64,000 nucleotides of DNA from contig JAFZEI010000028.1 of assembly GCA_017560765.1 (NCBI GenBank), forward strand, positions 66,690-130,689, in the 5' to 3' direction. This document shows, piece by piece, positions 4,922 through 22,497 of the stretch. The translations under genes were made by a program, and so were the position numbers. Below the pieces are notes generated by a model. The model ran no database searches and had not been told where the DNA came from. It was given only the letters and a program-made list of their open reading frames with translations. Numbering within the stretch: the stretch's first letter is position 1; each line of letters begins with the position of its first letter. This DNA comes from Clostridia bacterium. Lineage in GTDB: Bacteria; Bacillota; Clostridia; UBA1212; UBA1255.

Positions 4922-5042
4922 AACATTTCCCTTTCTGAATAATATGTTATCTCTTCTATTTTACACTTCTGTGGGATAATTGTCCATATCCGACATAAAT
5001 ATATTATGAACAAAAATTTGGAAATCGGAAAGGATAATAATT

Positions 5043-5981: not shown

Positions 5982-6013
5982 AAAGGACACAACCTTTCGA
6001 TTGTGTCCTTTTG
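5980..6013. terminator. Bidirectional rho-independent terminator between convergent genes
   Basis: Stem aggacacaa(5984-5992), loop cctttcga, stem ttgtgtcct(6001-6009), flanked by an A-run upstream and a T-run downstream. Confidence 0.6.
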
Positions 6014-6033
6014 AAAAACTTTTTAAATTCCTA

Positions 6034-7383
6034 TTATACTGTAAGGAGTTCCCAAATTTCGTTACATTTTTGTTCAAGTGCTGCAAAACCGTCTGAGTAG
6101 CTTGCAGAACCGGAAAGATCGTTTCTTAAAATGTTAATAACTCCTTCATCTATTGCCTCAGCAACCTCAATAGGCATACGGCAGTTAACCTGACCAGGTG
6201 TAGATGCTGTATCTGCTTTGTAAACAAATGCATCCCAGTTCTTTGTGCTCCAATTAGGATCATCAGGATACTTCCAAGCATCAAAGCCTTCTTCATCAAC
6301 AGATTTAAGAAGCGGTACTGAACCACCATTTCCTGCATTGAAGGATTTCTGTCCCTCAGGAGCGAAGAAGAATAATGCCAAAGCAGCAGCTGCTGTTACA
6401 TTCTGTGTTCTACTAAATACACCAACACCTGAAGCACCGCATCCAAAAGAAGGATTCTCAAACAAAGGCATATTTATAAGATCCCATTCAACACCCAAGT
6501 TATCATAGTTTTTACCTGCAGACTGAACTGAAGGATATACACAAGTCTTAAATACAGCTTCTTTACCTGCAAAGCCTTCTGCAGTATCGTTAACACCTGT
6601 AATCTTAGCGTAATCTTTCTTAGCTAAATCAAGTGCTTCTTTTACAGCTCTGAGAATCTTACCTTCTTCATCGATAAATGTAATCTTCTTATCTGTTGTG
6701 CTGCACCATGAATTTCTGTATGTATAAGCCTCAAAGAAAGCTGTATACACAGGTGAATAACCAAGGTTCAAGTCAATCGGATAATAATCATCACCATAAA
6801 GCTGCTCACAAAGAGCTTGGAACTCTGCCCATGTCCACTCCGGCTTAACTGATGCACTTGCACCTGCCTCAGTTACAGCTGTCTTGTTGTAAATCAAAGC
6901 CATGTGGTTATAGTCTCTGGGAACGAAATACAAACGTCCGTTAACAAGACCCAATGCATAAATACCACTGTATACATCGCTCAAATCGATATCGAACTTT
7001 TCAACAAAACCGTCAAGAGGAAGCAATGCTTTATCTGTAACTGCATATTTGTATGTATACAACTCTGCAAAATAGAATACATCACCGATATCAGCTGAAG
7101 CAATTCTTGTATCAGATGTAGCAGTGTAATCACGCTCAACCTTTACATCTTTATACTTCTTCTCAAAAGCAGAAATAAATCTCTCTGCTGCCTCCTTAGA
7201 AGCTGAGCTTGTAGCTGCAGGCTCGTATGTGAAAGTGATTTCACCCTCAGCAACACCACTCTTCTCGGCTTCTTCGAGTTGTTCCTGTGATACCATTTGC
7301 GGTTTGCCGCAAGCAACGATAGAAAATGTCATTACAAGAGCAAGCAGAATAACTGCTGCACTTTTGATATACTTTTTCATCAA
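6034..7383 (-). CDS. ABC transporter substrate-binding lipoprotein (family-1 extracellular solute-binding protein, CUT1-type)
   Basis: The 449-aa protein has a lipobox (LVMTFSIVACGKPQ) and the overall SBP_bac_1 pattern. It has its own promoter and terminator. Confidence 0.8.
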   Translation of the reverse strand: MMKKYIKSAAVILLALVMTFSIVACGKPQMVSQEQLEEAEKSGVAEGEITFTYEPAATSSASKEAAERFISAFEKKYKDVKVERDYTATSDTRIASADIGDVFYFAELYTYKYAVTDKALLPLDGFVEKFDIDLSDVYSGIYALGLVNGRLYFVPRDYNHMALIYNKTAVTEAGASASVKPEWTWAEFQALCEQLYGDDYYPIDLNLGYSPVYTAFFEAYTYRNSWCSTTDKKITFIDEEGKILRAVKEALDLAKKDYAKITGVNDTAEGFAGKEAVFKTCVYPSVQSAGKNYDNLGVEWDLINMPLFENPSFGCGASGVGVFSRTQNVTAAAALALFFFAPEGQKSFNAGNGGSVPLLKSVDEEGFDAWKYPDDPNWSTKNWDAFVYKADTASTPGQVNCRMPIEVAEAIDEGVINILRNDLSGSASYSDGFAALEQKCNEIWELLTV

Positions 7384-7436
7384 AATAACCTCCTAAAAAA
7401 ATATAATTTTATTTTCTATTGCATTAAAACAACTTT

Positions 7437-7464
7437 ATATTAACACAAGCAAACAATTTGTCAA
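7437..7464 (-). promoter_or_regulatory. Candidate sigma-A promoter for the 449-aa SBP gene
   Basis: On the minus strand: TTGACA(7464-7459), a 16-nt spacer, then TAATAT(7442-7437), located about 55 nt upstream of the RBS GGAGG. Confidence 0.4.
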
Positions 7465-7552
7465 TACGCGGTTTGGCAAAAAACACCTAAAAAACCACAA
7501 CTTAACAAAATATTAAAATCGCGTTAAATTTTATATGCATTTTTGATACTTA

Positions 7553-9088
7553 TTACCAATTTGCATTTGCCGCATCTTGAATCGTCTGTAACAATTCATC
7601 AATGTGTGTCATTGTACTGTCTTGAGTATAAGCATCAAATACATCAGCTATTGCATCTTTAACCTCTAAAGACGCATTCCATGACATGAAAGAAGTTAAA
7701 ACTGCAGGATAATCATTTTCTGAATAAAGTGAAAATACTGACGTATTCTTTCCTGACAATGGATATTCTCTCCAGAACTTCATACTGTTTGCTGATACTA
7801 CTGCCGGAACCTTGTAGCCAACATCTCCGGCATACGCTACTGCAGCCTCTTTTACCATTGCATACAATGCAAGGCTTTTTGAAAGCTTAATTGTATTTGC
7901 TATTTCTTTAGCTTCTTCCTCAAGTTCTTCATCGCTTTTATCAAAATCTGTTGTATAATCAGAAGACCTAACAACTTCACGATTAATAACAGCAAAACCA
8001 AGAGTTTTTACACCGATATTCTTATAAACAGTACCATCTTCTGATGCAAATCCCGGAAAATGAGCAAATTCCCAATCAAAAACAACTGCATCAGGATCAT
8101 CCTCTGTATCAACTGCCAAATAATTTTGCCATTTTACAACATCAGAGTGGTCTGCAACTATAATACCGTATTTTGACAAGTCCTCACCACGAACATCTTT
8201 TGTTTGTTTATTATCAACGTATCCTGTTCTTAAGAAATTGTCAGCAAAATACTTAAGTCCTTCAATTACATTAGGATCAGTAAGATTCAATTCTACTGTT
8301 TTGTCTGCAAAAGACACATCATTATATATACTGCCGCCAAAACTCTGTGCAAATGCACCCCAAATAGAATAGTCATTGTAATTCATAAGGATAGGTGTCT
8401 CTACACCACTTTCTCTAAGTGCACCAGCATAAGAAAGCAAGTCATCCCAAGTCCAAGAGTCTGACGGAACGGGGTTTTCTATTCCGGCTGCTTTTAATAA
8501 ATCCAAATTGAGAATTACAACTTGATTTAAATATTCAACAGGACACATATATAAACGACCATCATACATAGAAGCGTCGTATGCAGCCTGCATATATACC
8601 TTTGAAGGATAGAGCTTGCCAAAATTACTGTCAGTAAAATCGGTCACACCATTTGCTTCATTGCTGATATCAACAATCCAGCCTTTTTCAACATATTCAG
8701 GAAGCTTATCTGAACTGATGAGAACTACATCGCCTATATCTCCGCTCTCAATTCTTGAGTCAAGAGTGTTAAAATAATCCTCATAACCAAGTGTAGCGTC
8801 CAACTGAACATCCACACTGGGATATTGAAGTGCAAAAGACTGTGTGAACATAAACAAATCATTATCATTGTCGTTGTTCTCATCTTCGCCATACGGATCC
8901 TCTGCAGTATATTTTGCATTATATGAGGATATTATAATACTGCCTGCAAGATCCTCCGGAACAGGATTTGCCTTACCTGAGCTGCTGTCATCTTTGTCTT
9001 TGTCCTTACTACCGGAGCAACCGATAAAAGATACTGCCACAACAACAGCTAACATACATATTAAAGCAATACGCAATTTGTTAAACAT
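7553..9088 (-). CDS. ABC transporter substrate-binding lipoprotein (long family-1 SBP with acidic linker)
   Basis: The 511-aa protein has lipobox FIGCSGSKDKDKDD. It is the last gene of the long permease operon, with a 12-nt gap to the upstream permease. Confidence 0.75.
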   Translation of the reverse strand: MFNKLRIALICMLAVVVAVSFIGCSGSKDKDKDDSSSGKANPVPEDLAGSIIISSYNAKYTAEDPYGEDENNDNDNDLFMFTQSFALQYPSVDVQLDATLGYEDYFNTLDSRIESGDIGDVVLISSDKLPEYVEKGWIVDISNEANGVTDFTDSNFGKLYPSKVYMQAAYDASMYDGRLYMCPVEYLNQVVILNLDLLKAAGIENPVPSDSWTWDDLLSYAGALRESGVETPILMNYNDYSIWGAFAQSFGGSIYNDVSFADKTVELNLTDPNVIEGLKYFADNFLRTGYVDNKQTKDVRGEDLSKYGIIVADHSDVVKWQNYLAVDTEDDPDAVVFDWEFAHFPGFASEDGTVYKNIGVKTLGFAVINREVVRSSDYTTDFDKSDEELEEEAKEIANTIKLSKSLALYAMVKEAAVAYAGDVGYKVPAVVSANSMKFWREYPLSGKNTSVFSLYSENDYPAVLTSFMSWNASLEVKDAIADVFDAYTQDSTMTHIDELLQTIQDAANANW

Positions 9089-9100
9089 AAAAAACCTCCG

Positions 9101-10069
9101 TTACTCAATAACACCCAGTCGTTCAATACCTGATGCCAGTTTGTTCTGTCCGGCAATATAAACAATAAGTACAGGTATCATAACAAGCAAACATCCTGCA
9201 AAAAGCATTGGTTCGGTCATAGCCTTGTCAAAATCACTTGCTTCACCGGTGTAACCCATAATTTCCGCATAATATGTCTGAATTTTTTCAAGCTTAGGCT
9301 GAAGTGTCATCATATTTTGCTTAAACATATAGGTAGGAGCCTCATAGTTATCATTCCAGTGCCATACAAATGAGAAAATAAATACAATTGAAATGGCAGA
9401 TTTAACCAAGGGCAACATAATTTGAATAAATACTCTAAAAGGTCCTGCTCCGTCTATACGAGCCGCATCATCCATGGCATCCGGAATTCTCTGGAAGAAG
9501 TACATGTAAATCAATGCAAATAAAGCACCTCTTAAGCCAAGTCCAAATATACACGGTACAAGTATTGGTGCATACGTATTTGTTAAACCAAAAGTAGCCC
9601 ACATACCATAGGAAGACAAAATTGTTGTTTGAGGTGGTATCAACAATACCAAAATCAAGAATATAAACAAAAGATTTCTTCCTCTGAATTTAAATCTTCC
9701 TAATGCATATCCGATTATCGCACAGGAAACAGATTGCAATAACGCACTTCCCAAAGACAATATCAAAGAATTCAAGAATGAACGCGGATAAGAAAGACCT
9801 ATCCAAGCATCTACAAAGTTTTGATACTCAAATGACGTTGGAATCCATTCAACTGTTGGATCCATATAATCCTGATAAGACATCATAGATGTTGTCAAAA
9901 TATATATGAAAGGCAACAAAAACAAATATGCAAGTTCTATTAATACATAATACAGGAAAATACGTCCGATGATAAAGGTAATCTTTTTCTTTGCCTTATA
10001 TCCCAAATTTCTATATCTGTCAACAAGTCCACGTATAAAATCAGAAACTCTACCGAAAACCTTTGTCAC
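9101..10069 (-). CDS. Carbohydrate ABC transporter permease (MalG-like), GTG start overlapping the upstream stop (GTGA)
   Basis: The 6 TM segments include an EAA-type loop (IDGAGPFRVFIQIMLPL). The ATG-start ORF to 10138 overlaps the upstream gene by 73 nt. A GTG at 10069 with AGGAGG 8 nt upstream resolves the overlap. Confidence 0.8.
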   Translation of the reverse strand: MTKVFGRVSDFIRGLVDRYRNLGYKAKKKITFIIGRIFLYYVLIELAYLFLLPFIYILTTSMMSYQDYMDPTVEWIPTSFEYQNFVDAWIGLSYPRSFLNSLILSLGSALLQSVSCAIIGYALGRFKFRGRNLLFIFLILVLLIPPQTTILSSYGMWATFGLTNTYAPILVPCIFGLGLRGALFALIYMYFFQRIPDAMDDAARIDGAGPFRVFIQIMLPLVKSAISIVFIFSFVWHWNDNYEAPTYMFKQNMMTLQPKLEKIQTYYAEIMGYTGEASDFDKAMTEPMLFAGCLLVMIPVLIVYIAGQNKLASGIERLGVIE

Positions 10070-10953
10070 TTTAGCCACCTCCTTGTAAATAAGATGAATA
10101 TGAGAATTGTAACAAGAGCGAGAAGCATATACATCCAACTCAATGCAGATGCCATACCATACTCTGTTCCTTTTTCAGTCATTTCATTCATCATACTCAT
10201 TACCGGGTTATTATACTTTGTAAATGAGTCAACAAGAGCATATATACAATTCAAAATAACAAAAGGTGAAATATAAGGAAGTGTTACATGCCAGAAAGAT
10301 TCCCATGCTGTAGCTCCGTCAATTTCAACTACCTCATAAAGAATATCAGGAACGCTCTGCAAGGCAGCAAGGAATATCAAAATCTCAACACTACTGCTCC
10401 ACATGATATCTCCGATATACTGGGTAATTTTTCCTCCGAATGAAGAGAAAATACCTGAAGAAGAATTTACAAGAGAACCAAATACGCTGATACTTCCTAC
10501 TCCTTCGCCAAAGAGATAGCTCATTATTACTCCCGCAAGAATAACGGGGATAAAGAATATTACTCTAAAATAAACTCTTCCTGCAAACTTTTGTTTAAGA
10601 AGCACTGCAACAAACAATGCAAAGAAAACTATTATCGGAACTTGCCAAAGAGAATCTAAGAAGGAATTCAGCATAACCTCACCGACTTCCGGATCTTGAA
10701 CAATATCCACATAGTTCTGAATACCATTCCACTTACTCTGTCCTTCAAAACCATAAAGGTCTGTAAGCTGAGTAATATAAAAACTGATTCTGATTGAAAG
10801 CACTAACGGAACCATAATAAAGATTATGAAACCGATTACCCATGGTAATGAGAATCCCCATCCCTCAAGAGACTTTCTTCTTTCAAAGGAAATAACACTG
10901 CCTAAAGTACGCTTATGCGCTAATTTCTTTTTTGCTTTTATCTGTTTAGCCAT
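10066..10953 (-). CDS. Sugar ABC transporter permease (MalF-like)
   Basis: The 295-aa protein has 6 TM segments and an ABC-TM1 EAA-like motif (IDGATAWESFWHVTLPY). Confidence 0.85.
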   Translation of the reverse strand: MAKQIKAKKKLAHKRTLGSVISFERRKSLEGWGFSLPWVIGFIIFIMVPLVLSIRISFYITQLTDLYGFEGQSKWNGIQNYVDIVQDPEVGEVMLNSFLDSLWQVPIIVFFALFVAVLLKQKFAGRVYFRVIFFIPVILAGVIMSYLFGEGVGSISVFGSLVNSSSGIFSSFGGKITQYIGDIMWSSSVEILIFLAALQSVPDILYEVVEIDGATAWESFWHVTLPYISPFVILNCIYALVDSFTKYNNPVMSMMNEMTEKGTEYGMASALSWMYMLLALVTILIFILFTRRWLK

Positions 10954-10956
10954 GCA

Positions 10957-13446
10957 TTACTTCCCTCCCTTCTCTGAAATTTTATAGCTTTCTGCATTAA
11001 TTGTAATCTTTTCGCCATTAACATCCGTAACTGTTTGTTCAGCTGCCTCATAGTTTACATAAACTCTTGTACCGTCTGAATACTCTGTACAGAAAATATC
11101 AAGGCCGTCAACTACTCTAAAATGGTCTGAAATATCAAGTTTTGCAAAAGGTTTAACTGCCTCAGCAACAGCCTTATAACGCTCTACAATTTCATTTTTT
11201 AATGTTGAATATTCTGAACGATACAAACCATTGTAATAGGTATATCTCAATTCACTTGTCTTTTCTTCTGTAATCTCATAAGACATGAGAGAACCGTATT
11301 CTATAGAACGAAGAGTAAAGAATGCTTCATCGTCTTGATTGTTTACAGGAGCTGAATAATAGTCAACCAATCCATGATATACAATCTGCATAAAAGGAAT
11401 CTCTTCATCCAAAACAAGGTGAGATGACTTTTCAATAGGCATATCAACGATTATGTCTGCATACGGAATTGCGTATGAGTTTCCGCTATATACTGCAACA
11501 TCATCAAAGTTAGCACCGTATTTCTGAAGCCACTTTACATATAAGCTGATTGTCTGTACTCTAAACAAAGGATTTTCTTCGTTATAATCAGAAAATACAT
11601 TGTCACCCAACTGTTGTAAATCAACATTATTAGCACCAAAATCTTTGAGTCTTTCAATCAAATCATCAATAAGCTCTTGATCGAAATATTTAGGTCCCAT
11701 AACATAGAAGTCAGTTTTTCTGAACACACCTGATGTATCCTTTATATAGTAGTTAAGGTAAAAAGTATTCGCCTGTTTAACAATTGAGTTTCTAAATGTT
11801 GCACCATTAGTAGGGCTACCGTAAACAATTAAAAGGTTGTTATCAAGAGCAAGCGTAATATCTTTTCCTTTTGCCCAGCTGTACAAGTCTTTTAAATCAC
11901 TCTTTCCGCCGTAAGAACCATCAACCTTAAGCTTTGATGTGGCATTCCAGAAGTAACCGCCTTTCTGCCAGCCTAAAAGTGAAAGACGCAAATCAGAAGC
12001 ACCCATTGAATCAAGCTCATTATAAATAGAACGAACGTCCTCAAAATCAGTCATGACCTTAACTTGATCAAGGACACCACCTACTTCATTTTGAGCTCCC
12101 ATAAATAATTTTAAATTAAGTACTGGTGAATCACCTGAGTTTCCTGTAGCAAGTTCTACACCATAGCGTTCCTTCCATTGAGCAAGAAGATTAGAACGAA
12201 CTTCTTTTGCAACATCAACATAAGAATATTCTTCTGTTTCTGATGTTGTAATCTTAGTTCTTTGCTCAACATCACCTAATTGCTTATCCTTTACAACCAT
12301 GTCATACTGTGTACCACCGTTTGAAATCTGAAGTTTATAGAAATCACGGTAATTGTATTGGAAATAAATAGCATAGAAAGGAAGGTTTCTAATGCCGGGA
12401 TTTGAAATTTTAAGCTCAGCATTTGAATCTCCTTCTTTTATGAAAGAAGTCATTATAGAGTTTGCTGCGCTGTTAATATTCTCTCCATCATCATCAATAT
12501 TCTCAACGATACCATATGCGCCAATAGAAAGAAGCAAGTTGTTATAATCCGGTGCATCGCTTACATCGAATGTCAAATCATTACCATAAAGCTTCTTTGA
12601 ATACTCGTTGTAGTTTGTGATTCTTGCTGTGTCAAATTTTGTAAGAGCACCCGTACCATCCGGTGTTACAAAGTAACCCTCTTGACCGCTACGATGAGCA
12701 CCCATATAAGGAAGAACACTTAAAGACACCAAGAGAGGTCTTCTGTCTTGTTGCTCATTTTCAAGACCTTTTCTTTCGATTATACCATTTACAGGAATTC
12801 TGTAAACGAGCTCATCATTTTCGATAGTAATCTCAACAGAAAACTCTAATTCAAGTTCCTTCATCTCATAACGAAGACGAACACCGTTTTCTATGTAATA
12901 GGCAGTTTTAACATGTGCCATTTGATTTACACCAAGTGTGAATCCGCCGTCCATACCTGATTTTGTATAACCTACAAAAACAGGCGAAGTAATAAATTGA
13001 CCTGTTTCTGAATTTTCAGCATACAAATCCAAATCAGAAGTTTCGCCTTCTTCAAGTGTTGTTTCATGAATAGGCTCAGGATATGAGCGGAAAATCTCAC
13101 CCGTAACCAAATCCTCTAATATGAAAAGATTATCTCTGTTTGAGAAGCTTAGTTTCAATTTGTCATTCTCTGCTACAACTGTCATACCTTGATCAGTAAG
13201 CATTACACCGTTTATTCCCTTTGATTTATCAGGCGCAGCAACTTCTCTGATACCCTCTACACCATCTTTAGGGAAATTAACCTCATTTCCGTCGCCTGTG
13301 GCCACTGCAACGATGATAAAAGCAAGAATACAAACAAATACAAGAGCTACGCATCCCTTGATTATTTTTACTCTTTTTTCTCGTCTTGCTACTTGAAACA
13401 AAGGATCATTATTTTGTTTTTCTTCAACATTTTTCTTCTTAAACAA
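10957..13446 (-). CDS. Large membrane-anchored extracytoplasmic protein of unknown function (DUF5696-like by size and context; possible glycoside-hydrolase-like fold)
   Basis: The 829-aa protein has a cytoplasmic N-terminus, one TM helix (CVALVFVCILAFIIVAVA), and a large extracellular body. No recognisable catalytic motif. It is embedded between the permease pairs. Confidence 0.5.
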   Translation of the reverse strand: MFKKKNVEEKQNNDPLFQVARREKRVKIIKGCVALVFVCILAFIIVAVATGDGNEVNFPKDGVEGIREVAAPDKSKGINGVMLTDQGMTVVAENDKLKLSFSNRDNLFILEDLVTGEIFRSYPEPIHETTLEEGETSDLDLYAENSETGQFITSPVFVGYTKSGMDGGFTLGVNQMAHVKTAYYIENGVRLRYEMKELELEFSVEITIENDELVYRIPVNGIIERKGLENEQQDRRPLLVSLSVLPYMGAHRSGQEGYFVTPDGTGALTKFDTARITNYNEYSKKLYGNDLTFDVSDAPDYNNLLLSIGAYGIVENIDDDGENINSAANSIMTSFIKEGDSNAELKISNPGIRNLPFYAIYFQYNYRDFYKLQISNGGTQYDMVVKDKQLGDVEQRTKITTSETEEYSYVDVAKEVRSNLLAQWKERYGVELATGNSGDSPVLNLKLFMGAQNEVGGVLDQVKVMTDFEDVRSIYNELDSMGASDLRLSLLGWQKGGYFWNATSKLKVDGSYGGKSDLKDLYSWAKGKDITLALDNNLLIVYGSPTNGATFRNSIVKQANTFYLNYYIKDTSGVFRKTDFYVMGPKYFDQELIDDLIERLKDFGANNVDLQQLGDNVFSDYNEENPLFRVQTISLYVKWLQKYGANFDDVAVYSGNSYAIPYADIIVDMPIEKSSHLVLDEEIPFMQIVYHGLVDYYSAPVNNQDDEAFFTLRSIEYGSLMSYEITEEKTSELRYTYYNGLYRSEYSTLKNEIVERYKAVAEAVKPFAKLDISDHFRVVDGLDIFCTEYSDGTRVYVNYEAAEQTVTDVNGEKITINAESYKISEKGGK

Positions 13447-15535
13447 GATAAATCATCTCCTTACCAAATTGAATAATAAAGTCAAACATTTGGGCTGCAA
13501 GACCGTATACTATAAGGAACAGTAACACTACCGCAACTACGCCGACAGCGGTCAGCATAAATACAACAAATGCCTTTACAGGATGGAAACCATGTATACC
13601 TTTTATACAGAAGTACACAAGAGCAATCGTGTAAATCGTAAGTAATGTGCCAAGAATTCCGTAAATACCGGACTCATTTAATGTAAGCAAATGTGTAAGT
13701 GCTGCATACGGTAATGAAAGAAGCATCAAAGGACCATGACAGTATGCACCGCCTATAACAACGTCTCTGAATCTACCTTCACCGTACATAATCGTTGTAA
13801 CACCATAATTTACTATACAAACAACACCCCAAGGTAAAAACGCAAAGAAGAAAGTCAATACCGGTTCTATTGTATCGAGTGATGCTCCACCTCTGTAAAT
13901 AAAGCTTGTAGCGTATGCAGAAATAACAGAAACAATCGCATACAAAATCATTATAGCTATCATATCTAAATATGAACCCTGGTTTTCATATCTGATTTCT
14001 TCAAAGCCGTCTACAGGATGACGCATTATGTTAGTAACGCGACCAAAGAAATGCTTAATTGCAGTAAAGAAATTTTTCCTTTCCACAGGCACTCCGTATT
14101 TCTTTCTTCTGAATTTCTTAATAGTAACAACGGCAACCCAAAGAGCTAACAACACAACAATTGTAATTACTATCCATGAGAAATAATCTCTTAAGAAATC
14201 CGCTCTCATTTCTTCATAAGCTTCTGATGCATATGTTGCATTTTCAGCTTCATAGAAGAAATCGTAAGCTTCACTGTTAAATTCTTCTCTTAATTTAATG
14301 TTACCTATATTAACAAGTGCGAGAGAATAATAATTACTCTTCTCAACAACTTTCTCCCATTCTTTAAGGGATTCCTCGTACTTACCATCGCTGTAATATG
14401 CGTTTGCAACATGTACTAGATTTGCAAATTCTGTAGGTTTAAATACTGTTATATTACCTGTTGTTTTATTAAGTACATAAACTCTTCCATTTCCGTCAGT
14501 TTCTATACTAACCGGATACGAAAGCTGACCGTAACCATTACCCTTTGTGCCAAAAGCAAATAAGTTATTGCCTCTTTCATCATACTCATAAATTCTGCCA
14601 TACTGTCTGTCTACAATAAGCATGTTATTGTATTTATCAACTGTAACATCACAGAATATCTGATTTATTGTTGAAAAGCTTGACATGATACTGTTGTCAC
14701 GGAAATCATACGCTCCATAAAGTACATCCGAACCGCCAATGTTGATTTTACGAACTTGCGGAGGAGTTTCCGTTGTTGTTGTAGCATACATATAACCGTC
14801 TGCACTGGAGTAAATGTTAGTAAATGTATAAGGAAGTGTAACGACTGAACCCTTTCTGTCCTCACGGCTCCAAAGAAGCTTTGCTAATGATTCCCAAAAT
14901 GAGAGGTTAACTTTATTCGTACCATAATAACTTATAAACTCACCATTTGAGCTAAGCTGCATAATACCGTTACTGTCACCTTTGTTAGTTACATACATAA
15001 AACCTCTTGAATCTTTTGTTATCTTCTCCGGCTGATAGGAGAAATCCTTTGAAAGAAGGTCACTTTCAGGTTTTGAGTACGAATAACGAAGGTTTCCGTA
15101 TTTTGTAAATTCAACAATACGACCGTTTCCTGAGTCTGCAACAATAATTGCTCCGTCATCAGGGTCTACATATACACCTGTAGGATCTTTTAAAGCAGAC
15201 AAATCACCATCTACATATGTTCCGTCACTGCTGATTTCGAAAAGGAATTTATAGTCAGCACCATATACAACAATTCTGTTGTTACCTGTGTCTGCAACAT
15301 AAATCTTTCCTTCATCATCAATAAACATATCCTCCGGATTTTTGAGCTTTCCTGTTTCTGTTGAAAGAAAGTCGATAACCGTACTTGTTTCATAAGCTGC
15401 AGGAATAGGTTTTGCGGTCTTCTCTTTTTCCTGAATATAGTAGTTTGCATAAGGTGTTCTTGCACTTGCAGTTATACCTGTTGAAAGTACTAAGGAAGTT
15501 AATATAAGAAGACATATAAATTTTTTAAACTTCAT
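13439..15535 (-). CDS. NHL-repeat beta-propeller fused to a C-terminal Yip1-domain membrane module (YIP1 family protein)
   Basis: Signal peptide, then about five NHL-like blades (IYVADTGNNRIVVY, IIVADSGNGRIVEF, MLIVDRQYGRIYEY, VYVLNKTTGNITVF), a TM segment, then 5 further TMs typical of Yip1. Confidence 0.7.
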   Translation of the reverse strand: MKFKKFICLLILTSLVLSTGITASARTPYANYYIQEKEKTAKPIPAAYETSTVIDFLSTETGKLKNPEDMFIDDEGKIYVADTGNNRIVVYGADYKFLFEISSDGTYVDGDLSALKDPTGVYVDPDDGAIIVADSGNGRIVEFTKYGNLRYSYSKPESDLLSKDFSYQPEKITKDSRGFMYVTNKGDSNGIMQLSSNGEFISYYGTNKVNLSFWESLAKLLWSREDRKGSVVTLPYTFTNIYSSADGYMYATTTTETPPQVRKINIGGSDVLYGAYDFRDNSIMSSFSTINQIFCDVTVDKYNNMLIVDRQYGRIYEYDERGNNLFAFGTKGNGYGQLSYPVSIETDGNGRVYVLNKTTGNITVFKPTEFANLVHVANAYYSDGKYEESLKEWEKVVEKSNYYSLALVNIGNIKLREEFNSEAYDFFYEAENATYASEAYEEMRADFLRDYFSWIVITIVVLLALWVAVVTIKKFRRKKYGVPVERKNFFTAIKHFFGRVTNIMRHPVDGFEEIRYENQGSYLDMIAIMILYAIVSVISAYATSFIYRGGASLDTIEPVLTFFFAFLPWGVVCIVNYGVTTIMYGEGRFRDVVIGGAYCHGPLMLLSLPYAALTHLLTLNESGIYGILGTLLTIYTIALVYFCIKGIHGFHPVKAFVVFMLTAVGVVAVVLLFLIVYGLAAQMFDFIIQFGKEMIYLV

Positions 15536-15551
15536 TGCCCTTAAACCTCCG

Positions 15552-16421
15552 TTATTTAATTCCTGAGTGTGCCATTGTGTCTTGAACTCTGCTCTGGTTA
15601 ATGATGAAGATTATGATACTCGGAAGAGTCATAATTAAACCAGATGCAGCTCCGGCACCTGTTCTGGCAATACCGCCGCCAATAGTTGACATGAAAAATC
15701 CTAATGTTCTTAACTGCTCTTTGTAAATATACGTTGTAGATGTACCTGTCTCGCCCCAAATACCACCAAACGTAAGAATAATAACAGTTGCTTGAGCGTT
15801 TTTAAGAAGTGGGATTGCTATCTTTTGATAAAGTTGCCATTCAGAAGCACCGTCAATCTTACCGGCTTCGAAAATATCATTCGGAACCGTATCAAGGAAC
15901 TGCTTCATAAGGAACAAACACGTTGTATTGGCAAGAGCCGGTATTATATAAACCAAATAGGTATTATCAATTCCAATTGATGTAATAATCAAATATGCCG
16001 GAATACCTGCCGCTGATGCAATAAACATCATTGATGTTGTTACAAGGCTCATCAAACCTTTTTTGCCTGGGAACTTGTGTTTTGACAAAGGATAAGATGT
16101 CATTGTCAAAAGCCATACCAAACAGAAAATATAACATACTGTTATCAAAATTGTATTAAAGAGATACCTTGTAAACGGTACTGCACTATTAGCTGTTATA
16201 GCCGTCAAATCCTTAAAGTTTTGAATCGTCGGATTCTTAACAAAGAATGTAGGCGGATAGAGGAACAACTCCTCCGGTGGCTTAAATGCTGTACACACAA
16301 GGTATATCAACGGAAGCAAAGATACTGCGCCGGCTAAAGTAAGGAATACTAATATGACGACTTTACCGTGATCTTTACGTTTTTTAGCTTTCTTTAAATA
16401 ATCAACGTCTACCTGAAACAT
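15552..16421 (-). CDS. Carbohydrate ABC transporter permease (MalG-like)
   Basis: The 289-aa protein has 6 TM segments and an EAA loop (IDGASEWQLYQKIAIPLL). Confidence 0.85.
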   Translation of the reverse strand: MFQVDVDYLKKAKKRKDHGKVVILVFLTLAGAVSLLPLIYLVCTAFKPPEELFLYPPTFFVKNPTIQNFKDLTAITANSAVPFTRYLFNTILITVCYIFCLVWLLTMTSYPLSKHKFPGKKGLMSLVTTSMMFIASAAGIPAYLIITSIGIDNTYLVYIIPALANTTCLFLMKQFLDTVPNDIFEAGKIDGASEWQLYQKIAIPLLKNAQATVIILTFGGIWGETGTSTTYIYKEQLRTLGFFMSTIGGGIARTGAGAASGLIMTLPSIIIFIINQSRVQDTMAHSGIK

Positions 16422-16425
16422 ATTA

Positions 16426-17403
16426 TCACTCCTTCTCGCCTAAAACTTTAAATGCAACACGACCGATACCGAGAATCATAACAGAAAGAACCACGGCAAT
16501 AGCAGATGCGTAACCTACCTCAAATCGTGTACCTGAATAGTCACTAAGATGCAACATAATTGTAAGAGCAGCGTCCTCAGGGCTCGGGTGTCCGGCAATC
16601 GTTCCGCCTACAGAGAATGAACCTGTAATTGTAATAACAGCGGCAAACAACAATTGCGGCATTGTTTGAGGAACGTCTACATACAAAAGCTTTTGAAATC
16701 TTGACGTAACACCGTCAACCGAAGCTGCATCGTAAAGTTCTCTGTCAACACCACGGAAACCGGCAACGAATGAAAGGAACTGTGTACTCAAACTTGACCA
16801 CAACGCAACAATGATAACGACAGGCATAATATAATTAACATCCTGTAGCCATTGAATAGGTTCATAAATTAAACCTAAATTTAAAAGCAAGGAGTTAAGG
16901 TAACCTGTACTATCGTTTGAAAACATTACCGCCCAAACAACAGCCATGGCAACACCGCTTGTAAGAGCAGGTGCATAGAACGCCAAAACGTAAATAGGTC
17001 TTACCTTATCCGGAACCTGGTTAATAAACCACGCAAAGAAATATGACGCAATATAAGAAACAGGTCCAACAATTACTGCGTATGTCAAAGTATTTGTAAA
17101 TGCCTTTAAGAAAAGAGCATCATCAACAAACAAATAAACATAGTTTTCAAGTCCGTTAAAAACCGGATCTTCGAAAATGTTCCAATATGTAAAACTGAGA
17201 CCTAATGATGCCAACAAAGGTAACAACGAAAAAGTAATAAAGATAATGAAGAATGGAGCTACCATCGCATAAGACATCTTATGTGTCCACATTTCGTGGA
17301 GTGTGTATCCAAGTCTCTTCTCTACATTGAAAAATCTCTTTTTCGGTGCAACGGGCTTATTTGCTTCAGCTTTTTTTAATTTTTTCTCTTCTTTCTTACT
17401 CAC
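16426..17403 (-). CDS. Sugar ABC transporter permease (MalF-like)
   Basis: The 325-aa protein has 6 TM segments and an EAA loop (VDGVTSRFQKLLYVDVP). Confidence 0.85.
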   Translation of the reverse strand: MSKKEEKKLKKAEANKPVAPKKRFFNVEKRLGYTLHEMWTHKMSYAMVAPFFIIFITFSLLPLLASLGLSFTYWNIFEDPVFNGLENYVYLFVDDALFLKAFTNTLTYAVIVGPVSYIASYFFAWFINQVPDKVRPIYVLAFYAPALTSGVAMAVVWAVMFSNDSTGYLNSLLLNLGLIYEPIQWLQDVNYIMPVVIIVALWSSLSTQFLSFVAGFRGVDRELYDAASVDGVTSRFQKLLYVDVPQTMPQLLFAAVITITGSFSVGGTIAGHPSPEDAALTIMLHLSDYSGTRFEVGYASAIAVVLSVMILGIGRVAFKVLGEKE

Positions 17404-17418
17404 AAATTATCCCTCCAA

Positions 17419-20400
17419 TCACTTTGCAGCAGCACGATCAATATAAATCGCACCATCTTTGGGGATGCCAAACTCTGCTTGCTTACGACGCATCTCTTTA
17501 TTGATTTCTTTTACAGCATCTTCAAGAGCAATTCTACCGCTAAGTCCCTGCATAACAGTTTGGTTCAACGCTGTAACCAAATATCTTGATGTATAGTAAT
17601 CACCCATAGTTCCCGGCGTTTCATCCAAATGCTCCCATTGAGCATTAATAACATCAAGCTCCTCCTGTGAATAAGGAAGTGATTGAAGTGCTACCTTGTT
17701 TGCAGGATTCCAACGAGAAGCAACGCCAAATGTAGCCTCTACCTCTCTACCGTATTCTGCCTGAACAGCATTAGAAAGCCACCATTGAATAAACGTCCAT
17801 GACTCAGCATAATGTTGTTTTTCTTCGTTGTCCTGTTTTATGATGATACAACAAGAAGCAACACCACTTATGGATCTGTCAATAAACTCTTCGCCTGTCT
17901 CCTCATCAACATGAGCCTTACCGGGAAGTAATGTCATTGCCCACTTACCATTAAGCTCAGGAGCGGAATAATAAAGTTGTTGATAGAATGTTAAGTCAGC
18001 AATACCTATAGGCATCTCACCTGACTTAAATCTCATGTAGAAGTTTGCCGCATATACGAAATTATACTGGAGATATAAGTTTGAATATTCCATAAAAGCA
18101 TCGTATGCGAGCTCAGTATTCAATGCTGATTGCATTGCATCAGGAGTGTAGAAATCTCCACCATACTGATAAAGCATAGGCGTGTAACCTCCTACTCCAT
18201 AGTTAAAACAGAAGTCATAACCTGAGTTTGTCAAAGTAGGAAGAATATCATATACCTCATCCCAAGTCTCCGGAGGCTCTACTCCTAAAGTATCAAAAAT
18301 ATCAGTTCTGTAGAACAAAGCGTTCCAGTTTTGAGTCTCAGGGAAAGCGTAGTAGTCACCCAAATAGTTAAAAGGAACAAACGCCTCATCATGGTATGAT
18401 TGTATACCATACGGATTATCTGTATTTTTCCAGAGCTCATCAAATGTCATTACATCTATGCCATTATATTCGTCAACGCATACCTCATTAAGAGGGGCAA
18501 GAGCACCTCTGATGGCAAATTCAAAAACAGAACCTTTACCAATTGAAATAGCGAGGTCAGGAGCAGTTCCTGCAACATAACGTGGCATAATCAATCCCTC
18601 AGAAGATCCGGCTACCATGTTGATGTTTACTTTGATACCATACTCTGGTGTAAACTGCTCACTTACCATATTACGCATAATATCTACGTGTTCACGACCT
18701 CTGGCAACATAAACCTCAATCTCCGGCATACCTTCTGTATCGAGACCCTCACGAGCACCGGCGTTCTCATATTTTTCATTGTCAAATGAATTTAAAAATC
18801 TTACAGCACCAACATATAAGCTCTGCCAAGCATTGCTTCTTGCATCAGGATAATCATAATCCTTGGGAGCTGCAACCATGTAGTCAATAGCAATAGGTTG
18901 TTCCTTAATAGAAACCATTGTATTACTCAAACCGGTCTGTGCATTTGTAATATCGTTAAGAGAAATAGCAACTTTTTCTAAATCTTCATCGAAATCCTCA
19001 AACAATTCGCTGGCTACTTTAACAGCAGAAGCATAAGAAGTAACCTTACCGCCATTTAAGTAAATGATATCTTCATAACACTTGTTGAAAACATCAATGT
19101 ATGTCTTAATATCCTCTTGAATTGTAGGGATATAAAGCTGTAAATCATAGTCTCTGTTTTTATCTATTGTATATCCACCTGATGATGTACGCGCCGAAGC
19201 AGTAATTTTAACAATTTTATTTACAAGTGTTGATATTGAGTCCATAGATTCTTCTATTCTCTGGAGAGAATGACGAAGCGGACCAACTTTATTAACTAAA
19301 GAAATTGTATGATCGCCTTCTTCTAAGTAAAAGAGATATGGATTTTGATCTGCATCAAGCAAAGAGACAGCCGTCCAACCATCTGCATAAGGGAAACAAT
19401 ATTCTTCCATTTCTGCAAAAGGAATAGAACCGTCAATCTTTATCTCTTTAAAAGATGAAACGTATGTAAATTGAGATTTATAACGGAATCCCAATTCATA
19501 CCAACCTGTCTCAGGTACATTAAATGTCCATTCTACCTTATCTCCGCCTACAGACCATCTGTCACCACCGAATATATTAAACAGAGTAGCTTTATAAGAC
19601 GGAAGTGTTGCGTTTGAAGTTGTATAATAGTCATTGTCTGTTTCCATTCTGACACTTATACTTGTTGTCCAATCCGGAACCTCCATTTCCTTCTTTACAG
19701 ATGTTCCTGTATAAATGGCAGAATCTGAAAAACCTTTTTGTGTTTTATATTCTGCATAGGAAGGATTTACAACAGGAGCAATGAATTTAATATTGCGTAC
19801 CGCGCCGCTCTCTTTTGAGAACGTAAGAGCGATTTTGTGTGATCCTTTTTGCAAATAGAAACGATACGGATTTCTGTAAAGTCCGTCAGGGTTTGACATA
19901 ACAGTATTTTGCCAATCATAAATTTCTTGTGATTTCGGACGAATTTGATTGCCTACAACATCTTTATTTGAAGCATAATCATAATCATAAAAACCGTACA
20001 TTCTCTTTAATGCCATATTGGAAGCATCTTCAAAAGGAAGTTTACCATCTATAGTGAAATTCACCAGCATATCCGTATCACGGCCTGCAAGCATAAGATA
20101 CTCAATATAAAGTGAATATAAGCCGGCTTCATCAACTGTAATATCAAATTCCAGCTTTGTACCTTCATTGGAAACATAGAGCGCTCCTGCAATGTCTTCT
20201 AAAGAAAGAGACTTTTCGGAATTATCACTTTTATCAGTATACTTTACTCCGTTTTTATACTCTTCAATCTCATTAAGAAGAAAAACTTCTGACTCAGTAA
20301 GTTCCTTGTATTGAGAAAGGAAATCTCTAAGCCTTGAATCGGTAAGGTAGTCTTTAAGACCTTCTGCTGTATAGTCTTTTTCATCTACCCCTGATACACC

Positions 20401-20736
20401 ATATTTTTCCTTTAACGCAGCAATCTTGTTAGCCGTATCTGTATGCGACTTTGCAATAAGAGCCGCTACATCCACACTAATAGGATCTCCGGAATAATAC
20501 TTGTACCCCTTGGACGCATACTTCGTCAGAACCTTGCCGTATTCCAAAAAGCTGTTATCCAAACGTTCTTCATTTGCAACGAACGGATCAAAATCCATCT
20601 CGTCATAGTTCTCATAATTGTACTGAACTGTTTCAGCATCTCTGTTGCCATAAACGACAAAGACAACTGCAGCCACAAGAACAAGTGCGACTATGACAAT
20701 CGTTAAACGAATCATCTTCTTTTTTTTCTTAGTCAT
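17419..20736 (-). CDS. Giant membrane-anchored extracellular protein: N-terminal TM anchor, two internally duplicated beta-sandwich (CBM-like) modules, and a C-terminal family-1 solute-binding-protein domain
   Basis: The 1105-aa protein starts with TM helix LTIVIVALVLVAAVVFVVY. A tandem duplication is visible (GLYSLYIEY…IDGKLPFED…NPYRFYLQKGSHKIAL versus GWYELGFRY…IDGSIPFAE…NPYLFYLEEGDHTISL). The C-terminal ~450 aa resemble an ABC SBP. Confidence 0.7.
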   Translation of the reverse strand: MTKKKKKMIRLTIVIVALVLVAAVVFVVYGNRDAETVQYNYENYDEMDFDPFVANEERLDNSFLEYGKVLTKYASKGYKYYSGDPISVDVAALIAKSHTDTANKIAALKEKYGVSGVDEKDYTAEGLKDYLTDSRLRDFLSQYKELTESEVFLLNEIEEYKNGVKYTDKSDNSEKSLSLEDIAGALYVSNEGTKLEFDITVDEAGLYSLYIEYLMLAGRDTDMLVNFTIDGKLPFEDASNMALKRMYGFYDYDYASNKDVVGNQIRPKSQEIYDWQNTVMSNPDGLYRNPYRFYLQKGSHKIALTFSKESGAVRNIKFIAPVVNPSYAEYKTQKGFSDSAIYTGTSVKKEMEVPDWTTSISVRMETDNDYYTTSNATLPSYKATLFNIFGGDRWSVGGDKVEWTFNVPETGWYELGFRYKSQFTYVSSFKEIKIDGSIPFAEMEEYCFPYADGWTAVSLLDADQNPYLFYLEEGDHTISLVNKVGPLRHSLQRIEESMDSISTLVNKIVKITASARTSSGGYTIDKNRDYDLQLYIPTIQEDIKTYIDVFNKCYEDIIYLNGGKVTSYASAVKVASELFEDFDEDLEKVAISLNDITNAQTGLSNTMVSIKEQPIAIDYMVAAPKDYDYPDARSNAWQSLYVGAVRFLNSFDNEKYENAGAREGLDTEGMPEIEVYVARGREHVDIMRNMVSEQFTPEYGIKVNINMVAGSSEGLIMPRYVAGTAPDLAISIGKGSVFEFAIRGALAPLNEVCVDEYNGIDVMTFDELWKNTDNPYGIQSYHDEAFVPFNYLGDYYAFPETQNWNALFYRTDIFDTLGVEPPETWDEVYDILPTLTNSGYDFCFNYGVGGYTPMLYQYGGDFYTPDAMQSALNTELAYDAFMEYSNLYLQYNFVYAANFYMRFKSGEMPIGIADLTFYQQLYYSAPELNGKWAMTLLPGKAHVDEETGEEFIDRSISGVASCCIIIKQDNEEKQHYAESWTFIQWWLSNAVQAEYGREVEATFGVASRWNPANKVALQSLPYSQEELDVINAQWEHLDETPGTMGDYYTSRYLVTALNQTVMQGLSGRIALEDAVKEINKEMRRKQAEFGIPKDGAIYIDRAAAK

Positions 20737-20818
20737 ACGATCAACCTTCCGTGATATTTTGGTTATTAAAAACGATAATAATTATCACTATGCCTTTTTG
20801 GGCAATCTAAACAAAAGA

Positions 20819-20847
20819 ATTATATATATTTCGTGCAACTGTGTCAA
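20819..20847 (-). promoter_or_regulatory. Consensus sigma-A promoter driving the 8-gene ABC/YIP1 operon
   Basis: On the minus strand: TTGACA(20847-20842), a 17-nt spacer, then TATAAT(20824-20819). An ~85-nt leader ends in RBS GGAAGG 8 nt before the ATG at 20736. Confidence 0.55.
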
Positions 20848-20898
20848 TAACAAAATGCCAAAAATACTTTAGTTATTTTGTGTGCAAATTGTAAATAA

Positions 20899-22353: not shown

Positions 22354-22409
22354 GCCCAACGCCTCCGAAAAGATTATACTATTATAATTATGAAAAGTAC
22401 ACAAATTTC

Positions 22410-22438: not shown

Positions 22439-22497
22439 AGCCTGTGTGTCTTTATGCACAAAGGAAAGATTTTTTCAAAATTTTGGAGTGATATAAA

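Follow-up and report, generated by a model that had tools for sequence, protein, structure and literature searches.

In Caldicellulosiruptor (Anaerocellum) bescii, the genes Athe_0174-0181 comprise xloEFG, an NHL protein (Athe_0177), a protein annotated as 'GH129' (Athe_0178) and axoFGE (Rodionov et al. 2021, PMC8579813). This gene set heads a xylan degradation locus, is induced on xylan and on Avicel under XynR/AraR control, and relies on a common msmK ATPase encoded elsewhere (PMC8579813). The substrates of xlo and axo are transcriptomics-based predictions, not measurements, and the NHL and 'GH129' genes were given no role (PMC8579813). The counterparts in C. saccharolyticus, Csac_2412-2419, respond to xylan-rich biomass (PMC5658599).

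Going by that published annotation, the operon analysed here has the same layout: an SBP, two permeases, an NHL protein, a GH129-like protein, two further permeases and an SBP, with the ATPase encoded elsewhere. The first-pass annotation had held that no function is assigned to such a gene combination, and in this it was mistaken, as the same order is annotated in the C. bescii xylan locus with a predicted assignment (PMC8579813). The link to C. bescii rests on the published annotation and on a homologous cassette from Caldicellulosiruptoraceae (L027), which we compared by sequence. In C. bescii GH10/GH43 xylanases then follow under XynR/AraR control, whereas here the 64-kb window (the whole stretch of DNA analysed) has neither GH10/GH43 genes nor a regulator, and the operon has a consensus promoter. 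Xylan as the substrate therefore cannot be assumed here.

Gram-positive PULs with CUT1 importers include the xylan, arabinoxylan and xyloglucan clusters of Roseburia, Ruminiclostridium and Bifidobacterium. Like these, the present operon would lead from capture and trimming at the surface to SBP-dependent ABC import with a common MsmK-type ATPase. Unlike it, they usually contain a single permease pair with a single lipoprotein SBP of ~400-500 aa, they are without a Yip1/NHL protein, DUF5696 and a CBM-fused SBP, and the order of their genes is not preserved from class to class. The likeness to Sus-like PULs of Bacteroidota is one of analogy only: the SusC/SusD pair is absent here, and neither a TonB-dependent transporter nor SusD was found among the window proteins scanned.

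Nine ORFs occupy 6034-20736 of the minus strand, with the coordinates first annotated. In transcription order the features are:

20819..20847, minus strand: sigma-70-type promoter, TTGACA-17-TATAAT; sole 12/12 match in 5000-22600 (17.6 kb)
20737..20818, minus strand: 5' leader with a small conserved hairpin and a palindrome
17419..20736, minus strand: giant SBP, 1105 aa; TM anchor, CBM-like modules and SBP
16426..17403, minus strand: permease A1, 325 aa, MalF/UgpA-like; BPD_transp_1, 6 predicted TM helices
15552..16421, minus strand: permease A2, 289 aa, MalG/UgpE-like; BPD_transp_1
13439..15535, minus strand: NHL-TPR-Yip1 membrane protein, 698 aa; Pfam NHL, Yip1 and weak TPR_11
10957..13446, minus strand: DUF5696 protein, 829 aa, membrane-anchored, extracellular; Pfam DUF5696, predicted GH129/GH101-type fold
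10066..10953, minus strand: permease B1, 295 aa, MalF-like, divergent; BPD_transp_1
9101..10069, minus strand: permease B2, MalG/UgpE-like; BPD_transp_1, start corrected to GTG 10069
7553..9088, minus strand: lipoprotein SBP, 511 aa; SBP_bac_1, lipobox ...SFIGC
7437..7464, minus strand: promoter-like site before the ninth gene, TTGACA-16-TAATAT with TG extension; 10/12 consensus match only
6034..7383, minus strand: lipoprotein SBP, 449 aa; SBP_bac_1, lipobox ...SIVAC
5981..6012, minus strand: intrinsic terminator after the ninth gene; 14-bp stem, 4-nt loop, T-rich tail

The intergenic spacings in transcription order are +15, +4, +16, -8, +3, -4, +12 and +169 nt. The longest ORF of permease B2 (9101-10138, 345 aa) would start at TTG 10138; this start was rejected, since GTG 10069 comes with a Shine-Dalgarno site (AAGGAGG) and overlaps the preceding stop codon in GTGA. 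Once the seventh gene begins at GTG 10069, the gaps and overlaps of -8 to +16 nt that had been reported are reproduced. The 449-aa SBP probably starts at the ATG at 7380.

The perfect promoter noticed earlier ahead of the operon is real as a 12/12 match and is kept in ten aligned syntenic upstream regions, from loci down to ~40-50% DUF5696 identity. Judged from its sequence it looks constitutive, which is unusual in a catabolic locus. The ninth gene had been credited with its own promoter. The TTGACA-16-TAATAT consensus match is indeed present; read-through from gene 8 may also occur, as the stretch separating genes 8 and 9 showed no terminator. The operon is flanked by murD, thrC, hom, aspartokinase and metA; these neighbours are housekeeping genes, and no CAZymes were found near the operon among the window proteins scanned.

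The operon represents one instance of a seven-gene cassette that is both ancient and widespread, with the order CBM-bearing giant SBP, permease pair A, NHL-TPR-Yip1 protein, DUF5696 and permease pair B. We examined 33 loci, 27 of them complete and six cut by a contig end with the same order in the part present. The seven core genes were orthologous position for position in all loci spanning the whole cassette (27/27), with identities down to ~20-30%; orthologues of A1, A2, B1 and B2 always stood at positions 2, 3, 6 and 7, DUF5696 lay within the same cassette in 33/33 loci, and stop/start overlaps were frequent. The hosts are Clostridia, Paenibacillus, Cohnella, Butyrivibrio, Caldicellulosiruptoraceae and a Spirochaete, so that the recurrence in Clostridia and Paenibacillus claimed beforehand is borne out by this gene-neighbourhood comparison (27/27 complete loci). 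In this lineage, two extra lipoprotein SBPs lie downstream of the cassette. In three loci (L030, L031 and L032) the cassette stops after permease B2, and an SBP was not found nearby.

The CAZymes beside the cassette vary: GH43 (L002), GH20 (L027), GH5 (L028), GH95 plus GH43 (L029) and GH16/XgeA (L033). Because the cassette stands beside CAZymes for chemically different glycans, a single fixed glycosidic specificity is hard to reconcile with it, and the role of DUF5696 may be more general or non-hydrolytic. The neighbours also bear on whether the operon serves to turn over or recycle an envelope glycopolymer made by the cell itself (wall polysaccharide, capsule or a teichoic-acid-like polymer) and not dietary glycans. 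For such recycling speak murD, which always adjoins the operon in the Egerieisoma-like clade, the consensus and apparently unregulated promoter, the lack of catabolic CAZymes nearby, and the Wzy-like, GT2 and UDP-galactopyranose mutase genes found elsewhere in the 64-kb window. However, the murD linkage is missing outside that clade, the neighbours in other hosts are sugar regulators and plant-glycan CAZymes, and the Caldicellulosiruptor version is xylan-induced, which makes this explanation very unlikely in our judgement.

All four permeases exceeded the Pfam BPD_transp_1 threshold and form two complete MalF/MalG-like pairs. Their best NCBIfam similarities were to UgpA/UgpE, GlcT/GlcU and MalF/MalG, A1 being UgpA/GlcT-like and A2 UgpE/MalG-like. 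Pair B has weak Pfam scores and shares 21-23% identity with pair A (B1 vs A1, 23%). The Pfam and SBP matches agree with the first description of two CUT1-type permease pairs wired to three large extracytoplasmic proteins, and all its domain calls (NHL plus Yip1, DUF5696, four CUT1 permeases and three SBPs) were confirmed by Pfam or SBP searches.

As had been stated, neither an ATPase nor a regulator lies within or adjoining the cluster. The sole ABC ATPase in the 64-kb window is FtsE (38606-39538), and no MalK/MsmX-type ATPase with a C-terminal regulatory (TOBE/OB) domain occurs in that window. The absence is not odd: in Paenibacillus and Cohnella a MalK/UgpC ATPase gene lies immediately upstream of the cassette, and Caldicellulosiruptor uses the common msmK. 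Firmicutes as a rule provide the ATPase in trans, so its absence here is ordinary and does not exclude function.

The 1105-aa protein combines a membrane anchor and two CBM35/CBM6-like modules with a helical bundle and, at its C-terminal end, a CUT1 SBP. An N-terminal TM helix (~11-29) is followed by a variable region, two CBM35/CBM6-like beta-sandwiches (~185-320 and ~395-485), the helical bundle (~485-660) and the CUT1 solute-binding domain (~680-1100), which matches sugar SBPs in PDB and NCBIfam. The AF2 model covers residues 170-680 (pLDDT 86.5) and gave a Foldseek probability of 1.0 to CBM35 of CITase, Xyn30D, CsxA and C. thermocellum and to CBM6. Pfam matches to CBM_35 / Golvesin_C were weak; the CBM_35 threshold was not reached (19.6 bits vs a cut-off of 28), and some homologues exceed it. 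More than 100 homologues of ~850-1150 aa were found.

The giant SBP and the DUF5696 protein have single N-terminal TM anchors, and the 511- and 449-aa SBPs have lipoboxes. By their matches, all three SBPs belong with the cluster-D/family-1 extracellular solute-binding proteins. The 511-aa SBP (SBP_bac_1, 5.3e-17; nearest solved relative Lmo0181, E = 4.9e-16) is a variable accessory that is missing in some cassettes. The nearest solved relative of the 449-aa SBP (SBP_bac_1, 1.8e-15) is the arabino-oligosaccharide-binding protein 6rjy (E = 8.9e-15), which counts in favour of glycan import.

The DUF5696 assignment of the 829-aa protein holds (PF18952; E = 5.8e-130, 435 bits vs a cut-off of 25.6, model positions 6-612 of 612). 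In a confident structure model the protein has a TM helix (~15-49), an N-terminal beta-sandwich (88-405), a (beta/alpha)8 barrel (~409-765) and a C-terminal beta-sandwich (772-824), the three-domain fold of GH129/GH101/GH36-type glycosidases. The same fold is seen in the GH129-type enzymes NagBb, an alpha-N-acetylgalactosaminidase (5wzn), and DagB/ZGAL_3152, an alpha-1,3-(3,6-anhydro)-D-galactosidase (5opq), with GH101 and GH36 more distant. Unlike GH129, with which it shares only 12-16% identity, DUF5696 is a separate Pfam family, and the protein is anchored in the membrane via its N-terminal TM helix. The DUF5696 profile matched DagB (E = 5e-7) and NagBb (E = 1.4e-3) over short segments only. 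A single-sequence search of the 829-aa protein for GH129 relatives found nothing, and the protein matches no Pfam GH family; one member of the DUF5696 family exceeds the Pfam GH101 threshold.

Residue conservation was assessed in 149 representatives, each of a different 50%-identity cluster. D263, R629, H691 and E716 were 100% conserved, D290 and N702 99%, and position 535 was acidic in 99%; D620 was kept in 93% (N in 5%) and D664 in 84%. D620 and D664 would fit the spacing of D435/E478 in NagBb, and D263 would fit D202 of DagB by linear offset. On this sequence comparison D664 is a candidate acid/base residue. The invariance of D263, R629, H691, E716, D290 and N702 fits an enzyme rather than a pseudoenzyme; what counts against catalysis is that the catalytic residues have no residue-by-residue match to GH129 and that D620 and D664 are variable. 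We infer glycosidase catalysis for DUF5696: as a distant GH129/GH101 relative, it would probably be of the retaining type, with an alpha-linked residue or side chain as its target. The large proteins had been described as having no catalytic signature, a view not supported, given the GH129/GH101/GH36-type fold with its invariant Asp/Glu/His/Arg and the CBM35/CBM6-like modules of the 1105-aa protein.

The family is large, with ~5,100 clusters at 50% identity in a profile search (E <= 1e-10), and many relatives carry insertions of 400-1700 aa. The name DUF5696 was found in no paper of the searched literature, and to our knowledge no DUF5696 protein has a known enzymatic activity and no member of the family has been characterised.

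The 698-aa protein consists of a signal peptide, an extracellular NHL beta-propeller, TPR, a TM helix and a Yip1 multi-TM domain. Its NHL/Yip1 assignment, set beforehand for profile checking, stands: NHL was matched at 3.7e-17 and Yip1 (PF04893) at 1.6e-13 (51.3 bits vs a cut-off of 28.6; residues 502-673, model positions 2-172 of 173), with four hydrophobic segments within the Yip1-matched region and a weak TPR_11 match. In PDB the NHL part matches the TRIM71, Pizza and PknD propellers (E ~1e-22, up to 6 stretches). NHL-TPR and Yip1 are separate genes in L002, L027 and L028. Yip1 had been called a eukaryotic-type vesicle-traffic module, whose fusion to an extracellular NHL propeller was said to lack a characterised bacterial precedent. 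A purely eukaryotic character of Yip1 is not supported: Bacillus has YknW, a protein of the Yip1 family that is accessory to the YknXYZ ABC transporter and is reported to modulate how the transporter complex assembles (PMC4887032). Like YknW, the present protein is a Yip1-family polytopic membrane protein encoded inside an ABC-transporter operon. YknWXYZ differs in being an exporter of the MacB type that includes a membrane-fusion protein, whereas the present protein is partnered with CUT1 importers of type I; its Yip1 domain, moreover, is fused with or lies next to an extracellular NHL propeller and TPR.

As a rule, NHL propellers and TPRs serve as interaction modules. Together with the unmapped catalytic residues of DUF5696 and the very different CAZyme sets that accompany the cassette, this would suit non-catalytic DUF5696 and NHL proteins, the cluster being a surface sensor or adhesion device on ordinary oligosaccharide importers. 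We regard this as highly improbable. No kinase, cyclase, HTH or anti-sigma domain was found by Pfam in any of the nine proteins, and D263, D290, R629, H691, N702 and E716 are strictly invariant over 149 relatives, as is typical of an active site. The surface sensing complex suggested in the first-pass annotation is without support because a signalling domain is absent from all nine proteins.

Its other suggestion, a glycan capture-and-import machine, is the best reading of the folds, the CBM-like modules and the conserved order, and we consider it likely that the operon is a Gram-positive module of polysaccharide-utilisation type for glycan capture, trimming and import, built on the seven-gene cassette. 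The membrane-anchored giant SBP would hold a complex glycan or large oligosaccharide at the surface via its two CBM35/6-like modules, and its C-terminal CUT1 binding domain would feed permease pair A. The DUF5696 ectoenzyme would trim the captured glycan beside the membrane, and pair B would import the products, which in this operon the lipoprotein SBPs of 511 and 449 aa would deliver to it. By analogy with YknW in YknWXYZ, the NHL-TPR ectodomain on Yip1 may be an assembly or scaffold factor that holds both translocators and the enzyme, and it is possibly glycan-binding too. A common MsmK/MalK-type ATPase encoded elsewhere in the genome would power both translocators. Domain content, folds, topology, gene order and conservation are as observed; the physical complex and the pairing of SBPs with permease pairs are our deductions. 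In this gut bacterium the imported substrate would probably be an oligosaccharide that stems from plant hemicellulose or pectin. Counted against the glycan module are the lack of a CAZyme, regulator or ATPase nearby, the constitutive-looking promoter, and the cassettes without an SBP for pair B.

These last cassettes (L030, L031 and L032, with no SBP after permease B2) would be explained by an obligate supercomplex in which DUF5696, translationally coupled to permease B1, takes the place of an SBP, docks on pair B and passes its product straight to it, Yip1 joins the translocators, and the lipoprotein SBPs are lineage-specific extras. The seven-gene order and stop/start overlaps, invariant across phyla, the strong divergence of pair B from pair A (21-23% identity, weak in Pfam) and YknW as a precedent point the same way. 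However, type I ABC importers characterised so far require an SBP to trigger ATP hydrolysis, and pair B could be served by an SBP encoded elsewhere or by the giant SBP; we think the supercomplex rather unlikely.

Returning to the capture, trimming and import module, a tentative and rather unlikely extension is that the cassette encodes one membrane super-assembly comparable, on the Gram-positive side, to the 'utilisome' of Bacteroidota, with a Yip1-anchored NHL/TPR scaffold joining two translocators, the CBM-bearing SBP and the GH129-like ectoenzyme. If so, glycan capture, cleavage and uptake of two product classes would be physically coupled, and the enzyme might gate the second translocator in lineages without a second SBP. 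The two signature proteins of the cassette, one with a glycosidase-like fold, are not known to have been the subject of biochemical work. Proof that DUF5696 is a GH129-type enzyme coupled to a pair of importers would give a handle on what is probably a new glycosidase activity or family, on a first functional assignment for NHL-Yip1 proteins in bacteria, and possibly on a general mode of glycan foraging in Firmicutes of gut, rumen and biomass-degrading communities, including Caldicellulosiruptor, whose main xylan locus begins with the cassette.

An Rfam search of the 5' leader gave zero matches. In the ten-locus alignment, the leader hairpin (TGCC-CAAAAA-GGCA, 20791-20804) is kept with other stem sequences in L014 and L022. 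The leader also carries a perfect 6-1-6 palindrome, GATAAT-T-ATTATC (20774-20786), a candidate operator, whose pattern is exact in L003 and L006.

The nine ORFs that the first-pass annotation had placed on the minus strand were recovered at the same positions, separated in transcription order by +15, +4, +16, -8, +3, -4, +12 and +169 nt. The first seven, which we call the cassette, encode a giant SBP (1105 aa), permeases A1 and A2, an NHL/Yip1 protein (698 aa), a DUF5696 protein (829 aa) and permeases B1 and B2. Genes 8 and 9 encode two further SBPs (SBP511 and SBP449). For gene 7 (permease B2) the start was set at GTG 10069, which has AAGGAGG in front of it and forms a GTGA overlap with the upstream stop, so the longest-ORF start (TTG, 10138) was dropped. 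The 73-nt overlap between B1 and B2 (10066-10138) is thus an artefact of longest-ORF calling. In relatives, tblastn still aligned the spurious N-terminal extension of B2, since the conserved 3' end of the upstream gene codes for it. The following signals accompany the operon:

20847..20819, minus strand: promoter TTGACA-17-TATAAT, the sole perfect match in the 17.6 kb scanned
20791-20804, minus strand: small hairpin in the leader, TGCC-CAAAAA-GGCA, kept by different stem sequences in two other cassette loci (L014 and L022)
20774-20786, minus strand: perfect 6-1-6 palindrome in the leader, GATAAT-T-ATTATC
6012..5981, minus strand: strong terminator, 3' of the ninth gene

The promoter hexamers are strictly kept in ten aligned syntenic upstream regions, from loci down to about 40-50% DUF5696 identity. 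The operon leader (20737-20818, minus strand) is conserved across syntenic loci, and its palindrome may serve as the operator of a regulator whose gene lies elsewhere. No Rfam family matched the operon, leader included. A promoter-like site (10/12, with a TG extension) lies upstream of the ninth gene and there is no terminator between this gene and gene 8, so transcription could both read through and start internally.

We examined 33 loci: 24 in genomes, found with an alignment of 21 closer DUF5696 sequences, 2 on plasmids and 7 on contigs. The genome loci are from gut and rumen Clostridia, the closest being Candidatus Egerieisoma and an Oscillospiraceae MAG with 81-82% DUF5696 identity. The two plasmids, from Paenibacillus cellulosilyticus and Butyrivibrio fibrisolvens, are large and non-mobilizable. 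In every locus the best match of each cassette protein lay at the same position, at identities dropping to about 20-30%. The cassette was complete in all 27 loci that span it; the other 6 are truncated by a contig end and show the same order as far as they extend. Two neighbouring genes encode NHL-TPR and Yip1 separately in Butyrivibrio, the Caldicellulosiruptoraceae genome PP1 and a Spirochaete, and the number of trailing SBPs varies between 0, 1 and 2.

Pfam and NCBIfam bore out the domain calls of the first-pass annotation. The four BPD_transp_1 permeases form two MalF/MalG-like pairs, which are just 21-23% identical to each other and are therefore ancient paralogues. An exporter was rejected, since each of the four membrane subunits is a type I importer protein of this family. 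The 511- and 449-aa proteins both contain SBP_bac_1 and a lipobox. The nearest solved relatives are Lmo0181 for SBP511 and the arabino-oligosaccharide binder 6rjy for SBP449 (E 8.9e-15); like 5ci5 and Lin1841, they were rejected as guides to substrate because they are too distant.

The 829-aa protein belongs to DUF5696 (5.8e-130, Pfam) and has a single N-terminal anchor by hydropathy. An AlphaFold2 model built with 45 homologues was confident (pLDDT 87, pTM 0.87). In it, a TM helix is followed by two beta-sandwiches, one N-terminal (88-405) and one C-terminal (772-824), with a (beta/alpha)8 barrel between them (about 409-765). Its top Foldseek matches in the PDB were the GH129-like DagB of Zobellia (5opq, E 2.7e-33) and the GH129 enzyme NagBb (5wzp, 3.3e-26), followed by GH101 endo-alpha-GalNAc-ases (about 1e-17), a Flavonifractor galactosaminidase and GH36 alpha-galactosidases. 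At the sequence level, the family profile matched DagB (E 5e-7) and NagBb (1.4e-3), and a single-sequence search against PDB sequences gave no match. One 562-aa member (P0176) clears the Pfam Glyco_hydro_101 gathering threshold (25.7 vs 25 bits) and so bridges DUF5696 and GH101 in sequence.

Conservation was assessed by aligning to the profile the window protein and 148 representatives of different 50%-identity clusters. D263, R629, H691 and E716 are 100% conserved, D290 and N702 99%, D620 93% and D664 84%, and position 535 is acidic in 99%. By linear offset from the aligned segments, D620 would fall at the place of the GH129 nucleophile, which is D435 in NagBb and D486 in DagB (PMC5698469). 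By the same reckoning, D664 appears to share the acid/base spacing of NagBb and D263 probably occupies the place of the essential D202 of DagB. The GH129-type fold, the profile matches and the invariant residues overturn, for this protein, the earlier statement that the large extracytoplasmic proteins lack a catalytic signature. The rival reading as a non-catalytic sensor or adhesin is disfavoured, because the invariant residues of DUF5696 are polar and no signalling domain occurs in the nine proteins; for want of such domains the sensing complex suggested as one possibility in the first-pass annotation was also rejected.

The DUF5696 family is large, with 5,120 clusters at E <= 1e-10 in a profile search of 1.84 billion representatives, and many members reach 1200-2500 aa through insertions. 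These long relatives (P0177-P0324; L030, 10001-13627; L031, 10001-15763) nevertheless align to all of the 800-position profile as one continuous stretch, so the insertions must be very large and internal or terminal. The two examined (L030 and L031) are located in the same cassette.

The 1105-aa protein has a single N-terminal anchor by hydropathy, a sugar-SBP domain (about 680-1100) and, at 380-438, CBM_35/Golvesin_C matches that are all sub-threshold in Pfam. A model of residues 170-680 (pLDDT 86.5) shows two beta-sandwiches and then a helical bundle. The sandwiches matched CBM35 modules (cycloisomaltooligosaccharide glucanotransferase, Xyn30D, CsxA and C. thermocellum) and CBM6 modules with a Foldseek probability of 1.0. 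The whole protein is thus a CBM-CBM-helical-SBP fusion with a membrane anchor. Its homologues of about 850-1150 aa number more than 100 and occur in Clostridia, Paenibacillaceae, Caldicellulosiruptoraceae and Spirochaetia; several of them pass Pfam CBM_35 outright. In the metagenomic cassette L033 (662-3475), two ORFs seem to take the place of the giant SBP, one for the CBM/helical part (521 aa) and one for the SBP (402 aa); the gene is either truly split or frameshifted.

The 698-aa protein matches NHL (3.7e-17), TPR (weakly) and the full-length Yip1 model (1.6e-13) in Pfam. Hydropathy indicates a signal peptide, one TM helix and four further hydrophobic segments in the Yip1 region. The Yip1-family protein YknW of Bacillus was reported to modulate assembly of the ABC transporter YknXYZ (PMC4887032), so a Yip1 protein as transporter accessory has a bacterial precedent. 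In the literature searched, "YIP1 family protein" did not occur together with "carbohydrate ABC transporter permease", and "DUF5696" was absent. NHL-Yip1 and DUF5696 are the two signature proteins of the cassette and are without prior experimental characterisation.

The same architecture is found in the xylan degradation locus of Caldicellulosiruptor bescii (Athe_0174-0181), as matched by the published annotation. The proximal part of that locus is xloEFG-X-GH129-axoFGE (Rodionov et al. 2021, PMC8579813). Its two CUT1 transporters are predicted to import xylo- and arabinoxylo-oligosaccharides, xylan and Avicel induce all the genes of this part under XynR/AraR, msmK is encoded elsewhere, and the NHL protein and "GH129" were given no role (PMC8579813). 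In C. saccharolyticus the counterparts are Csac_2412-2419, whose response to xylan-rich biomass has been described (PMC5658599). Homology of the cassette was verified in the Caldicellulosiruptoraceae genome locus (L027); a further profile search for DUF5696 relatives added almost no proteins and none from Caldicellulosiruptor. The gene set described in the first-pass annotation stands and its interpretation is partly right. The system is not categorically new, being a CUT1 ABC-importer glycan locus whose gene order lies, by annotation, within a known xylan regulon. The cassette is a distinct, deeply conserved and mechanistically unexplored variant of such loci.

The reading with the best support is that of a Gram-positive module for capture, trimming and import. 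Its domains, folds, topology and synteny are observed, and its catalysis, physical coupling, pairing of SBPs with permeases and substrate are inferred. The membrane-tethered, CBM-bearing SBP would hold a complex glycan and feed permease pair A, and the tethered GH129-like enzyme would trim the glycan at the surface. The products would enter through pair B, with lipoprotein SBPs where present. The NHL-TPR-Yip1 protein may scaffold or assemble the membrane components, and a shared MsmK-type ATPase would power both translocators. A MalK/UgpC ATPase gene lies immediately upstream of the cassette in Paenibacillus and Cohnella; the window has no MalK-type ATPase, its sole ABC ATPase being FtsE, adjoining FtsX. 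A rival reading, prompted by the occurrence of cassettes without a second SBP, is an obligate supercomplex with enzyme-gated uptake.

The cassette accompanies CAZymes for different glycans from host to host. Its neighbours are GH43 and a two-component system in Butyrivibrio, GH20, PIG-L and a GntR regulator in PP1, GH5 in the Spirochaete, and GH95, GH43 and AraC in Cohnella. At L033 GH16/XgeA-type genes follow the cassette, which hints at xyloglucan or beta-glucan. This variety suggests either that the SBPs and the enzyme are respecified rapidly or that DUF5696 has a more general role, and it is the chief difficulty for a simple "one glycosidase" model. In the window's clade the neighbours are housekeeping genes (murD, thrC, hom, aspartokinase and metA flank the window operon), and the rest of the window has no glycoside hydrolase. 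A further rival reading, recycling of envelope glycans, is prompted for this clade only, by the linkage to murD together with the consensus promoter.

Several other genes of the window were noted. At 1342-3950 (minus strand), downstream of a GTPase gene, a 360-aa leucine-rich-repeat protein (EndoS-type LRR match) adjoins a 509-aa ORF with no Pfam match. An L-rhamnose isomerase gene, RhaA (E 2.4e-219), lies at 29936-31189 (minus strand), about 9 kb from the operon, with no rhamnulokinase or aldolase among the neighbours scanned. Three consecutive ORFs of 292, 345 and 183 aa (43225-45946, minus strand) gave no Pfam match; they may be an anti-sigma or envelope module, since the gene immediately upstream of them (45943-46491) encodes an ECF-type sigma factor. 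Genes for the biosynthesis of surface glycans at 26661-28127 and 60357-62586 encode a Wzy_C/O-antigen-ligase-like membrane protein, a GT2 glycosyltransferase and a UDP-galactopyranose mutase, which imply a galactofuranose-containing envelope polymer.
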